DNA of 64,000 nt from Candidatus Borrarchaeum weybense (lineage in GTDB: Archaea > Asgardarchaeota > Sifarchaeia > Borrarchaeales > Borrarchaeaceae). Location of the stretch: positions 1 to 64,000 of the forward strand of contig JAHQJS010000004.1 of NCBI GenBank assembly GCA_019057385.1. The letters run 5' to 3'. A program made the translations under genes and the position numbers. The notes below the pieces were generated by a model. That model had not been told where the DNA came from and did no database searches. It saw only the letters and a list, made by a program, of their open reading frames with translations. Shown here piece by piece: positions 20,233 to 64,000 of this stretch. The number at the start of each line of letters is the position of its first letter. The stretch's first letter is position 1.

Positions 20233-20395
20233 CTGTGCATCATAGAGGATTGGTGAACTACCACCCTACAAGTAGGCTGGCTTCCTGAATCATTCATTCC
20301 CCAACGGGACATGTCAAACAGGCTCTACGGGCAGTTCCTGCCCTGCATGTATGGTTAATATGAGAAGTGGCGAGTGTGACCTCAGCTCAATTCTA
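20233..20395 (-). ncRNA. Putative trans-acting omegaRNA (family B); guide CAATCCTCTATGATGCACAG
   Basis: Scaffold homologous to the tnpB 3' end/right end at 63577-63669; internal TATA-like box. Confidence 0.55.
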
Positions 20396-20503
20396 ACTAC
20401 CAGAGGTACCACACCTTATTTAAGTGTTGGGGACCACTGTGAAAGTGAACACGTAACACGATTCATCCCCCCAACAAGTAGAGGGGTCTTCTCGCGAGTT
20501 CTG
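20253..20503 (-). mobile_element. Non-autonomous IS200/IS605 minimal element, family B, copy 1 (251 bp)
   Basis: TTTAT 5' of the left end; left-end hairpin GAAGACCCC...GGGGGGATGAA; TATA-like CTTAAATA; 93-nt right end ending GGTAGTTCAC, one difference from 23461-23553. Confidence 0.88.
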
Positions 20504-20509
20504 ATAAAT

Positions 20510-20845
20510 TTGAGTTGGATAAATATCGAAAAAGTGAATTGGGAGCAGCATCCATTTTTAGACATTAAAATCAAGAAGTTGATTTCAAAGAAAAAAGATG
20601 GCGCTGATTTGACGATCTTTCTAGCTAAACTGCCAAAAGGTCAAGAAATACAGGCACACGTACATAAAAATTCAGATGATATTCTCTTTCCGCTAGAAGG
20701 AAAAGGAAAAATTTACATTGAGGGGTCTGGGGAATTCGAGCTCTTTCCGGGAGTTTTAGTTCGTGTCCCCAGAAACACCAAACATCGAGTTTCTGCTGAA
20801 GAAGATCTACTTTATTTTGATGTATTTGCGCCTCCCATGTTCTAA
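20510..20845 (+). CDS. Cupin domain protein (the ORF extension to 20351 is element-derived)
   Basis: HVHKNSDD...G and VPRNTKH cupin motifs; TTG start just outside the element. Confidence 0.85.
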   Translation: MSWINIEKVNWEQHPFLDIKIKKLISKKKDGADLTIFLAKLPKGQEIQAHVHKNSDDILFPLEGKGKIYIEGSGEFELFPGVLVRVPRNTKHRVSAEEDLLYFDVFAPPMF

Positions 20846-20872
20846 AAATGGTTAAAAATCATTTAGGATTGC

Positions 20873-22540
20873 TTAGATGCGGATTGTTTCAATTATCCAT
20901 CTCAAGAAGACTATACCAAATAGCCCAGCTAGAATATATCCTATTAAGCTATATTGTGGAAAACCGAAAAAACTTGGTTGTTCCAAGAAGAGAATCAATG
21001 TACTACTAATTATCATGGAACTAATAAGAAGTGAGAAGCCGATTCTATTTGCGGCTTTTTGTCGCATTAAAAGATGTTCTTCACTATCTTTATCCTTTAT
21101 TTGAACTGTCAGATTACCTTCCTCTAGACGTGTAAGGAGATAATTAAGCCGAGACGGAAGATCTCTTGTGAGTCTTACAAATCCTTGAATATTTGAAATT
21201 AATTGTTTTGCTAGTTCTTGAGGAGAAGCCATCTTTTCGATAAAACTGCTCATATAATTCTCTGCGTGGTCCATGAAGTTGAAATCTGGATCCAATATCC
21301 TCGCCGATTTCTCAAGAAACATAATAGCTCTTCCAAGGTTCATGAACTCGGTGGGCGCACGCATTTTATGCCGATAAGAAAGCTGGAATAGTTCATCCAT
21401 TAAGTTGCCCCAGTTAATGTCTTTCAGGGGCTTGTCAGCATAAGTGTCTATCAAATCACTAAGATCTCGCTCGTATAGTGTAATTTTTGTTTCTTCTGTT
21501 ACGATTCCCATTATTTTGAATTCTCTGACTATTGAACTGACGTCTTTTTGCATCATACCAAGGAATAATGCACTAAAATGCTCGATAGTTCTGGATGTGA
21601 TTTTTGTACACATCCCAAGATCTATTATGCCAATTGTGTTATCTTCCTTAACGATCAAATTCCCACTATGTGGGTCCACTTGAACGAATCTGAAATCGAA
21701 AATCTGTTTCATATAAGCATCGACAAGGTTCTTAACGATTAACTTTCCTCGTTGAACATCGAGTTTTTTTTCTTCAATTAGTTTTGAAAGAGGAGTGCCG
21801 TAAATAAACTCTTCGACAAGGACACGTTTACTTGTGTATTTGGAATATATTTTTGAAATCTGAACATTGGGATTATCATCAAAGTACTTATGTAACTTCT
21901 CTGTATTAGCAGCTTCGTTAAGGAAGTCCAGTTCGCGCATCATGGTGTACTCAAACTCACTAATAATACCTACAGGATCGTAGAGTTCACTAATACGCAA
22001 ATGTTTTTCAGCAGATTTTGCAAATTCATACATAAGACGAATATCTGCGGCAACGATTTTTTGGATTTCAGGTCTTTGAACCTTAATGGCTACGGTTGTT
22101 CCATCTTTGAGTTCTGCTTTATGAACTTGAGCTAGAGAACCTGCAGCAATTGGTTTACGATCTATAATCTTGAATACATCTTTAAGAGGTCTGCCTAACT
22201 CACTTTCAATGATTTCTTTTGCTTCTTCATAAGAAAATGGAGGAACTTCGTCCTGCAGCTTTTCAAATTCTTTGATCCACTCATCGGGAACCAAATCGGG
22301 TCTTGTTGACATAAGTTGCCCCAATTTGATAAACGTAGGACCCAAGTCTTCAATAACTTTCCTTACTCGAATTGCACGTCTCTCTTGCTTTGATAATTCA
22401 CCTTCACGAATTTCTTCTTTTGTTGGTTTGCTTATAGACGGAAAATGTGATGAAATACCGTCTATAAAAGCGCCGAAACCATGTTTGACTAATGTCCTTG
22501 AAATTTTGTTGAGGCGCCCAATATCTCTTATTATCGCCAA
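20873..22540 (-). CDS. ABC1/UbiB/COQ8 family atypical kinase
   Basis: LGPTFIKLGQ (KxGQ), AAGSLAQVH, VAIKVQRP, DPHSGN, IDLG; C-terminal TMs. Confidence 0.92.
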   Translation of the reverse strand: MAIIRDIGRLNKISRTLVKHGFGAFIDGISSHFPSISKPTKEEIREGELSKQERRAIRVRKVIEDLGPTFIKLGQLMSTRPDLVPDEWIKEFEKLQDEVPPFSYEEAKEIIESELGRPLKDVFKIIDRKPIAAGSLAQVHKAELKDGTTVAIKVQRPEIQKIVAADIRLMYEFAKSAEKHLRISELYDPVGIISEFEYTMMRELDFLNEAANTEKLHKYFDDNPNVQISKIYSKYTSKRVLVEEFIYGTPLSKLIEEKKLDVQRGKLIVKNLVDAYMKQIFDFRFVQVDPHSGNLIVKEDNTIGIIDLGMCTKITSRTIEHFSALFLGMMQKDVSSIVREFKIMGIVTEETKITLYERDLSDLIDTYADKPLKDINWGNLMDELFQLSYRHKMRAPTEFMNLGRAIMFLEKSARILDPDFNFMDHAENYMSSFIEKMASPQELAKQLISNIQGFVRLTRDLPSRLNYLLTRLEEGNLTVQIKDKDSEEHLLMRQKAANRIGFSLLISSMIISSTLILFLEQPSFFGFPQYSLIGYILAGLFGIVFLRWIIETIRI

Positions 22541-23295
22541 TTATATTCACCCTTTTGTCAGTTTCAAATCGGATAGAGCCAGAAAGTTAAAGATCAATGT
22601 TTTATACACCTATAATACATAGAACGGTTAATAAATTGAACTTGATATGAAGAAATGAGGCTAATGACAAGTTAATATCATCCTTGTGAGTCATATATTG
22701 TGAGTTCTGTTTAGTCTTCAAGATATTTCTCAGGCAATTTGTTTAATGAACCTTTCGAATTGAATAACTGATATAGACAGATCCTCACAAGATGGTGAAA
22801 TCTTATAGTTATAATGTTACATATTACGCGTCTTTGAAATTTTTTTGTTAACTTAACCAACAAAAATTCTTGCTAGTTTTAGCAACTTCTTTTTAAAGAG
22901 TTTTTTGTCGGCTTAGAGTCTATCTCAAAAGAAAATTGATATTTGGGTGCTTATCGACGATTTCCCAAAAGCGTACGAATTCGTTCATTCAACTACATTT
23001 AAATAGAGATGTGACAAATACTTGATTACTAACTTCTCATGATAGTATACTTAGAGTACATGAGTTGTTTCAAAAAGCGGCTTACCTCAAACGAGTTTAG
23101 AGTATAAGTCATAGGAGACTGTTAAAGCAATCATTATTATAATCTCATTATAATACTGGGGCAATTGCTAATCGCTCCTTTGAATACACATCTGACTGGC
23201 GAGGTAAGAAGAACTCCTAGATTAAATTGTTTTTCCAAAGTTTTTTTTATAGATTCTATCCAGAAGAGTAGAGACAAGCGTCGATATATTTTTAT

Positions 23296-23553
23296 CACGT
23301 CGCCGCAAGAAGACCCCTTAATGTGTTGGGGGGATGAAATGCGTTACTGTTTTCACTTTCACCATACTCCCTAACCTTTAAGTACTGATTCGCATAGATC
23401 GTAAGTAGAATTGAGTTGAGGTGACACTCGCCAGTTCTCACCTTAACTTCACATCGCGTTCAGGGCAGGAACTGCCCGTAGAGCCTGTTTGACATGTCCC
23501 GTTGGGGAATGGATGATTCAGGAAGCCAGCCTACTTGTAGGGTGGTAGTTCAC
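23296..23553 (+). mobile_element. Non-autonomous IS200/IS605 minimal element, family B, copy 2 (258 bp)
   Basis: TTTAT (23291-23295) | left-end hairpin, TATA-like TTTAAGTA (23377-23384), 93-nt right end ending TCAC, five differences from the tnpB-linked copy. Confidence 0.88.
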
Positions 23554-23573
23554 AGTCTCTTGCAGTGACTCTG
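23405..23573 (+). ncRNA. Putative trans-acting omegaRNA (family B); guide AGTCTCTTGCAGTGACTCTG
   Basis: Same scaffold as 63577-63669; start inferred from TATA spacing. Confidence 0.55.
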
Positions 23574-23609: not shown

Positions 23610-23714
23610 GGGCCGATAGCTCAGTTTGGAAGAGCGCCGCGCTCGCACCGCGGAGGCCGCGGGTTCAAAGGACATGGATCTTATCCAAGCCTGGAATTCC
23701 CGCTCGGTCCACCA
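23610..23714 (+). tRNA. tRNA-Ala(CGC) with a non-canonical 59/60 intron (23670-23697); CCA encoded
   Basis: GGGCCGA/TCGGTCC acceptor with G3:U70, CCGCG-CTCGCAC-CGCGG anticodon arm, BHB TTCA/TGGA with AA|G and AT|T bulges. Confidence 0.93.
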
Positions 23715-23781
23715 TCCACTTTACAAAAATTATTTGATTTCCTCTAAAAGCATTTTATTTTTTTATGCAGAACTGGTATAA

Positions 23782-63556: not shown

Positions 63557-63669
63557 AAACTTAAGCAGAACGTGATGTGAACTACCACCCTACAAGTAGG
63601 GTGGCTTCCTGAATCATCCATTCCCTAACGGGATATGTTAACCAGGCTCTACGGGCAGTTCCTGCCCTG
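63557..63669 (-). ncRNA. omegaRNA core overlapping the tnpB 3' end, plus guide ATCACGTTCTGCTTAAGTTT (5' end undefined)
   Basis: Hairpins GGGCAG-GAA-CTGCCC and CCACCCTAC-TT-GTAGGGTGG; terminal TCAC. Confidence 0.7.
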
Positions 63670-64000
63670 ATGATGATCGTGCTTCTAAATAGTGAGTGGA
63701 TCGGTGTAAAACAGTGATGGCAGAATTATAGTCTCTCGCTAACACCAGCCCACAGTACGGACATCTGTGGATTCGTGTTGCTAGTGTTTTCGGTACCAGT
63801 TTTCCACACCTACTACACAGTTGTGTGGTGTTATAGGCACTCACATATTCTACCAGCGTACCAGCTTCCTCCGCTTTGTACTCGGTAAAACGCATGAGTT
63901 GCCCCCATCCTGCATCACTGATCGACTTGGCGAGATGATGGTTCTTCACCATGTTGGTGATCGTAAGTTTCTCATACACAATGAGGTCATAACTATTGAC
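63577..64000 (-). mobile_element. Right end of a tnpB-carrying IS200/IS605 (IS1341/IS605-type) element, family B
   Basis: tnpB C-terminus followed by a right end ending GGTAGTTCAC. Confidence 0.9.
63638..64000 (-). CDS. tnpB: TnpB RNA-guided endonuclease (C-terminal part, 5'-truncated by the window)
   Basis: RuvC-II VYEKL, LAKSISDAGW, TTQLCSRCG...CPYCG zinc finger, RuvC-III RDYNSA. Confidence 0.93.
   Translation of the reverse strand, partial: VNSYDLIVYEKLTITNMVKNHHLAKSISDAGWGQLMRFTEYKAEEAGTLVEYVSAYNTTQLCSRCGKLVPKTLATRIHRCPYCGLVLARDYNSAITVLHRSTHYLEARSSSGQELPVEPG

Follow-up and report, generated by a model that had tools for sequence, protein, structure and literature searches.

Protein-free IS200/IS605 derivatives that keep a promoter and an omegaRNA-like module in an Asgard archaeon

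Do short mobile elements without any protein gene serve as guide-RNA genes for a TnpB encoded elsewhere in the same genome? The question is raised by two elements, called here A (positions 20253-20503) and B (23296-23553), that lie in a stretch of 64,000 nucleotides from the Asgard archaeon Candidatus Borrarchaeum weybense (GenBank assembly GCA_019057385.1, contig JAHQJS010000004.1), hereafter the window, which is C4:1-64000 of a 4.18-Mb assembly with 37% GC. An earlier note on this DNA had described them as cassettes of a dispersed guide-RNA repertoire for one resident TnpB, whose gene reaches into the far end of the window. In the established biology of TnpB, the guide is taken from the 3' flank of the element, and TnpB cuts the emptied donor site flanked by the transposon-associated motif (TAM), restoring the element; elements that resemble palindrome-associated transposable elements (PATEs) often encode omegaRNAs, which are necessarily used by TnpB in trans (Meers et al. 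2023, PMC10055086). The definition of PATEs comes from haloarchaea (Dyall-Smith 2011, PMC3119063), and Halobacterium expresses a PATE-derived RNA, VNG_R0052, that covers the right end, as well as sense overlapping transcript RNAs (sotRNAs) of IS1341-type tnpB (Gomes-Filho 2015, PMC4615843).

Results

The short elements share both ends with tnpB-carrying copies

We took a census of the copies by genome-wide BLAST. Genome-wide there are 29 occurrences of the 93-nt right end, and a 21-mer from it is found three times in the window against an expectation of 0. Fifteen copies are short and tnpB-less, 14 of them complete (251-258 bp) and one split across contig ends; in twelve copies, 1354-1387 bp long, tnpB is intact and encodes 383-402 aa, and a thirteenth tnpB-carrying element has a shortened frame. 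Both ends are common to the 15 short and the 12 intact full-length copies. The short elements align with the 12 tnpB-bearing copies in the left-end hairpin and in the right end, the ends are asymmetric with subterminal hairpins, and alignment to the parent shows that the entire tnpB is absent. Neither A nor B holds a transposase or nuclease gene, and the open reading frames (ORFs) that overlap them are chance or hybrid frames only. This confirms that A and B are protein-free, non-autonomous members, of the PATE or MITE (miniature inverted-repeat transposable element) type, of a tnpB-only (IS1341-group) IS200/IS605 family, much as the earlier note had proposed when it called them derivatives with the right end of the resident tnpB. 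The right ends of A and B are identical at 92 of 93 positions and differ from the tnpB-linked one at 63577-63669 by 6 and 5 nt, respectively, while their left halves are more diverged (67% identity between A and B), all as first described. Other short elements (C4:228256-228572, C4:891437-891757, C7:236289-236614 and more) match this family only in the first ~35 nt of its right end and in a portion of the left; they are further MITE families of the same superfamily.

Insertion sites reveal a TTTAT target and recent mobility

An automatic rule for the left border (last TAT) proved wrong for several copies, and borders were read by eye from the alignment. TTTAT stands directly before the left end in 24 of the 26 copies genome-wide, A and B included, and in 31 of 36 metagenome copies, a TAM-like target that agrees with the (T)TTAT predicted beforehand; all genomic copies terminate in GGTAGTTCAC. 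We then compared congeners. At the site of A, the congener G004 is unoccupied, and TTAT runs straight into the right flank, which establishes that A is exactly 20253-20503 and was inserted without target duplication; the coordinates proposed earlier for both copies are exact. Occupied as well as empty alleles are present among congeners. Recent movement is evident from three copies, A among them, that stand at separate TTTAT sites with 98.8-99.6% identity. B is a same-site insertion in three species (this genome, G002 and G004), upstream of a tRNA-Ala gene, and is old. The genome contains at least 35 tnpB-like loci and one Y1 tnpA gene (C7:194221-194586); this sole tnpA belongs to an element of tnpA-tnpB composition, and that element's right end, too, finishes in GGGGTAGTTCAC.

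A promoter and a candidate RNA module precede the right border

Aligned with the parent, a short element reads TTTAT, ~10 nt, the left-end hairpin, TTTCACTTTCAC, a TATA-like 8-mer, 20-25 nt, a hairpin that we call P1, a variable linker of 20-35 nt, the 93-nt right end and the flank. P1 has a 6-bp stem and the 18-nt loop AGCUGAGGUMACACUCGC; together with the linker and the right end (helices P2-P6) it makes up a predicted RNA module of ~145-150 nt. In all copies the conserved module terminates exactly at the element border, as the position, and the position only, of an omegaRNA would require. In the parent, the last 10 codons of tnpB lie inside the right end and the stop codon is 61 nt before the border. 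Just upstream of the right end, all 12 tnpB copies have a length-variable run of TCA/TCATCA (Ser) codons (63670-63690, for example), a hypervariable linker between the tnpB body and the right end. The MITE copy at C6:18-163 has in its linker the same TCATCATCAT stretch as tnpB-linked copies, which hints at exchange between MITEs and full-length copies.

The left-end hairpins and TATA-like boxes pointed out earlier were both located (Table 1), and the 8-mer aligns with the promoter box that precedes tnpB in full-length copies. The GAGGT that had been taken for a leftover Shine-Dalgarno-like motif has another place: it does not align with the ribosome-binding region of tnpB and sits in the invariant loop of P1, a hairpin seen only in tnpB-less copies. 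The distance from the TATA-like box to P1 is 20-25 nt in 32 of 35 genomic copies; in the other three the scan had mis-picked the box, which by eye stands ~21-22 nt upstream of P1. Among 36 metagenome copies the spacing is a near-constant 22-24 nt. The usual archaeal distance between TATA box and start site would put transcription initiation at the foot of P1. A look-up of RNA data sets for the region listed none. The one run labelled 'metatranscriptomic', probably of DNA, yielded contigs from related organisms only, which cover parts of a kinase gene and MITE or right-end sequence beside other flanks, and says nothing on expression.

Covariation supports a predicted RNA fold

We tested a six-helix model, in which P1 and P2 are followed by P3 enclosing the P4/P5 hairpin and by the terminal P6, on 25 copies from six genomes. 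The model pairs 96% of cells, against 27-49% in slid controls, and 12 of its 32 pairs are changed on both sides, compared with 6.8 in shuffles, none of 500 of which reached the observed value. The compensatory changes fall in P1, P4/P5 and P6. An independent set of 40 distinct metagenome copies repeats this result, in an alignment that was fitted to the model and is thereby biased towards it; covariation lends support in both sequence sets. A covariance model separated the two kinds of copy in each of the six genomes of the class, with 147 bits or more for tnpB-less copies and ~100-125 bits for tnpB-linked right ends. Pairing of the loop UGAG with the tail UUCA, or of the 5' arm GAAUUG with the tail UAGUUC, is a suggestion of a pseudoknot in which every position is invariant. 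Single-sequence folding z-scores were only -2.2 and -0.85, and we set them aside as evidence.

P1 is specific to tnpB-less copies

All 15 hits of P1 in this genome lie in tnpB-less elements, as does every copy of P1 in five related genomes, and 36 of 36 complete metagenome copies with P1 (245-264 bp) are tnpB-less. P1 is conserved across two Asgard families and dozens of contigs from sediment metagenomes. An nhmmer search returned no significant homologue of P1 in full-length elements or elsewhere in the genome. In MAFFT alignments P1 bore a faint resemblance to one or other end (5' or 3') of tnpB, a derivation that nhmmer did not bear out; RNAalifold on 28 copies gave no convincing structure for an equivalent of stem 1 in tnpB-linked copies.

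Conservation is uneven along the elements

The claim that conservation is uneven held over many copies, and divergence was far from uniform. Among 12 non-redundant MITEs, identity is 0.69 in the left half, 0.90 in P1, 0.70 in the linker and 0.92 in the right end. Identity across the 12 tnpB paralogs is 0.82 in protein, 0.62 at four-fold degenerate sites, 0.94 in the right end and 0.945 in the right end's 61 non-coding bases. The Y1 transposase requires a subterminal hairpin, as in IS608 and ISDra2; the conserved module reaches ~145 nt from the element end, far past that hairpin, and transposase recognition alone does not explain the uneven conservation. G005, a genome of another family in the same class, keeps the module at ~80-85%, and its MITEs (loci L023-L038) join the P1-P5 core to two different matched pairs of left and right end hairpins. 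The core being kept while end hairpins were exchanged, it is not merely sequence read by the transposase. One of these pairs looks like the hairpins of the element that carries tnpA in the present genome (G000).

Many intact TnpBs, and guides that match their own flanks

The resident protein has the Pfam domain OrfB_IS605, a Cas12f-like TNB domain and an N-terminal helix-turn-helix domain, and matches ISDra2 TnpB with E=5e-59. The RuvC D-E-D residues are kept in 12 of 12 TnpB copies and the zinc-finger cysteines are conserved; judged by its sequence, the protein is a bona fide TnpB. Its relatives are found in Candidatus Borrarchaeum yapensis, Sifarchaeum and other metagenome-assembled genomes of Promethearchaeota (Asgard). 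In place of the one TnpB envisaged at first as the partner of the cassettes, the genome holds at least 12 diverged intact paralogs with a shared right end.

We searched the whole genome with the predicted guides. They match their own 3' flanks, and otherwise give near matches at chance level; no second TAM-flanked match beyond chance was found in the genome, and a 20-mer of P1 had 0 matches in a viral contig collection. The dispersed repertoire is thus one in form, each guide matching its own flank alone. Site retention (homing) by a selfish element fits such guides, and a set of trans targets does not.

Discussion

We think it likely that A and B are PATE-type elements whose promoter-driven omegaRNA is loaded in trans onto TnpB paralogs of the family and protects their own insertion site; we infer transcription, loading, cleavage and homing from the features described above. 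Each element keeps the ends needed for single-strand transposition, the left hairpin by TTTAT and the right hairpin with GUUCAC, together with the former tnpB promoter and the predicted RNA module of ~145-150 nt. Transcription would start from the TATA box at the foot of P1, and the RNA would extend through the right end into the flank. One of the at least 12 intact TnpB paralogs with the same right end would bind this RNA in trans, the 3' flank acting as guide. If a Y1 transposase excised the element, the TnpB-RNA complex would cut the emptied site (TTTAT and flank), and recombination with the sister chromosome would restore the element. The cassette would then be a selfish hitch-hiker on TnpA for movement and on TnpB for retention, and not a bank of guides against other targets.

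Several observations weigh against this interpretation. The element of the sole tnpA shares the tail GGTAGTTCAC and the GGAAGCC foot with the family, but its hairpins differ from the family's. At the orthologous B site (23296-23553 and loci L004, L012), the element (0.88-0.91) is not clearly more conserved than its flanks (0.79-0.93). There, the terminal hairpin of G004 carries five compensatory changes and matches the prevailing variant of that species, which suggests replacement or gene conversion and not drift in place; the homogeneity of right ends within the genome may likewise stem in part from gene conversion or replacement. The tnpB-linked copies are without P1, which leaves in doubt whether TnpB would accept or require it. 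Being invariant, P2 and P3 show no covariation and are neither supported nor refuted, while the covariation of P6 is equally expected of a DNA hairpin recognised by TnpA. Rfam 15, whose families include transposon-associated RNAs, gave 0 matches on the elements at the gathering score or at E up to 10.

Some of these points would suit a plain transposition parasite, in which the MITEs are kept by TnpA movement only, the 3' module reflects cis requirements, recent ancestry and gene conversion, and any RNA is functionless. The terminal hairpin covaries as a DNA hairpin would, the orthologous B site bears signs of replacement or conversion, and one MITE copy has the TCATCATCAT linker typical of tnpB-linked copies. 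However, conservation and covariation reach P1 and P4/P5, 45-145 nt from the end, whereas the left end, equally needed for transposition, is far less conserved; two archaeal families preserve the P1-P5 core with their end hairpins exchanged, the spacing between promoter and P1 is fixed, and the linker between P1 and P2 evolves freely, contrary to blanket homogenisation. We therefore regard the plain parasite as unlikely.

We give still less credit to an RNA that modulates TnpB or has been co-opted by the host, either as a decoy or regulator competing with the cis omegaRNAs for TnpB or as an outward promoter or guide acting on neighbouring genes in the manner of TldR, instead of serving retention. 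The absence of P1 from tnpB-linked RNAs would make the MITE RNA different from the cognate one, A separates the TTG start of a cupin gene from a GAGG that resembles a ribosome-binding site, and B, fixed in three species, reads towards a tRNA-Ala gene 60 nt away; yet the nuclease residues are kept in 12 of 12 TnpB copies, unlike in TldR, TTTAT is the only feature common to the insertion sites, and the guides are without a second target. As for a genome-wide repertoire that programmes TnpB against trans targets (loci or viruses) like a primitive CRISPR array, 15 cassettes with 15 different flanks and intact TnpBs with the same scaffold are what it would call for, but the guides are whatever flanks the insertion, with no second TAM-flanked genomic match beyond chance, the P1 20-mer has no match in the collection of viral contigs, and neither acquisition machinery nor array organisation is present, which leaves it very improbable.

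Trans retention by omegaRNA, the explanation that we prefer, has close precedents. The PATE-like elements of Geobacillus stearothermophilus (PMC10055086) are also without a protein gene and have ends in common with elements that bear tnpB, a single tnpA acts in trans on many elements, and the omegaRNA is retained, presumably for homing by the TnpB of other elements. The present case differs in its Asgard host, archaeal TATA promoter, TTTAT target and scaffold without Rfam match, and in the 5' hairpin P1 that only protein-less copies have; it is also known from sequence alone. The haloarchaeal PATEs likewise arose in archaea when IS1341-group elements lost tnpB and their left and right ends became joined, but they belong to another phylum, are unrelated in sequence and were studied before the omegaRNA concept; the elements here have a larger conserved scaffold and a fixed promoter spacing. 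As to the ISDra2 TnpB-omegaRNA (Karvelis 2021, PMC8612924; Nakagawa 2023, PMC10097598), the protein is homologous (E value as given above) and has the same D-E-D residues and zinc finger, and the TAM is T-rich and 5 nt long in both (TTGAT in ISDra2, TTTAT here). The ISDra2 omegaRNA has a 6-bp stem 1 with a 19-nt loop that holds the pseudoknot partner of the tail, a stem 2 enclosing stem 3, and a terminal stem 4 (PMC10097598). Helices follow one another in a similar order here: first a 6-bp stem whose loop has 18-19 nt, next a long-range stem around a hairpin, then the terminal hairpin and, ahead of the guide, a short tail. Differences are the extra hairpin P2, the variable linker and the source of the RNA: ISDra2 makes it from the tnpB transcript, whereas here a promoter of the protein-less copy's own stands immediately in front of the scaffold.

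The concept of a protein-less element encoding an omegaRNA is thus already published (Meers 2023; haloarchaeal PATEs), and A and B are a well-supported new example from Asgard archaea, without a new principle. They are protein-less Asgard IS200/IS605 derivatives that keep a promoter and an omegaRNA-like scaffold while the rest decays, with the constraint quantified and covariation observed. They support the published view that guide RNA and nuclease of OMEGA systems (for obligate mobile element-guided activity) are modular and can be supplied in trans, and leave the current understanding of these systems unchanged. A scaffold of ~145-150 nt, the TAM TTTAT and 12 natural TnpB variants make a candidate archaeal pair for genome editing. 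The sole new detail is the P1 hairpin specific to tnpB-less copies. We propose, tentatively and with more doubt than confidence, that P1 may have evolved as a 5' domain equivalent to stem 1 and pseudoknot of ISDra2, making the cassette a free-standing, promoter-driven guide-RNA gene structurally distinct from an RNA cut from the tnpB transcript. If true, this would be a natural case of guide RNA and nuclease becoming separate genes, as is assumed to have happened between TnpB and CRISPR-Cas12 with trans-encoded RNAs.

Features of the window and neighbouring genes

Table 1. Coordinates of elements A and B, of their parts and of the tnpB-carrying relative, as positions in the window
Feature	Positions	Strand	Basis or remark
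Copy A, MITE/PATE, 251 bp, tnpB-less IS200/IS605 derivative	20253..20503	-	BLAST; both ends fixed by G004 empty site
TTTAT target/TAM at left end of A (ATAAA on + strand)	20504..20508	-	
Left-end subterminal hairpin of A, CCCCTCTAC TT GTTGGGGGG	20467..20486	-	
TATA-like box of A, CTTAAATA, 23 nt upstream of P1	20417..20424	-	
P1 hairpin of A, 6-bp stem, invariant 18-nt loop, tnpB-less-specific	20364..20393	-	
93-nt right end of A, predicted helices P2-P6 and GUUCAC tail	20253..20345	-	
Predicted guide of A (3' flank), unique in genome	20233..20252	-	Inferred from TnpB biology
TTTAT target/TAM at left end of B	23291..23295	+	
Copy B, MITE/PATE, 258 bp; orthologous insertion in congeners G002 and G004	23296..23553	+	BLAST
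Left-end subterminal hairpin of B	23314..23333	+	
TATA-like box of B, TTTAAGTA, 23 nt upstream of P1	23377..23384	+	
P1 hairpin of B	23408..23437	+	
93-nt right end of B, predicted helices P2-P6 and tail	23461..23553	+	
Predicted guide of B (3' flank), ~40 nt upstream of tRNA-Ala gene	23554..23573	+	
93-nt right end of tnpB-carrying parent-type element; full element at C4:63577-64941	63577..63669	-	
tnpB, 3' part (393 aa in full; continues past window edge)	63638..64000	-	Last 10 codons overlap conserved right end

The cupin-domain gene next to A occupies 20510-20842, and in G004 the same cupin leader is uninterrupted. An in-frame ATG within A (20351) produces an artificial ORF of 164 aa. The gene downstream of B is a tRNA-Ala(CGC) gene at 23614-23720 (+), with G3:U70, an encoded CCA and an intron of ~28 nt in the T-loop between positions 59 and 60. 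ARAGORN finds 0 tRNAs in the whole window and the Rfam tRNA model gives 22.4 bits, where its gathering score is 29; two congeners have the gene with 98-99% conservation.

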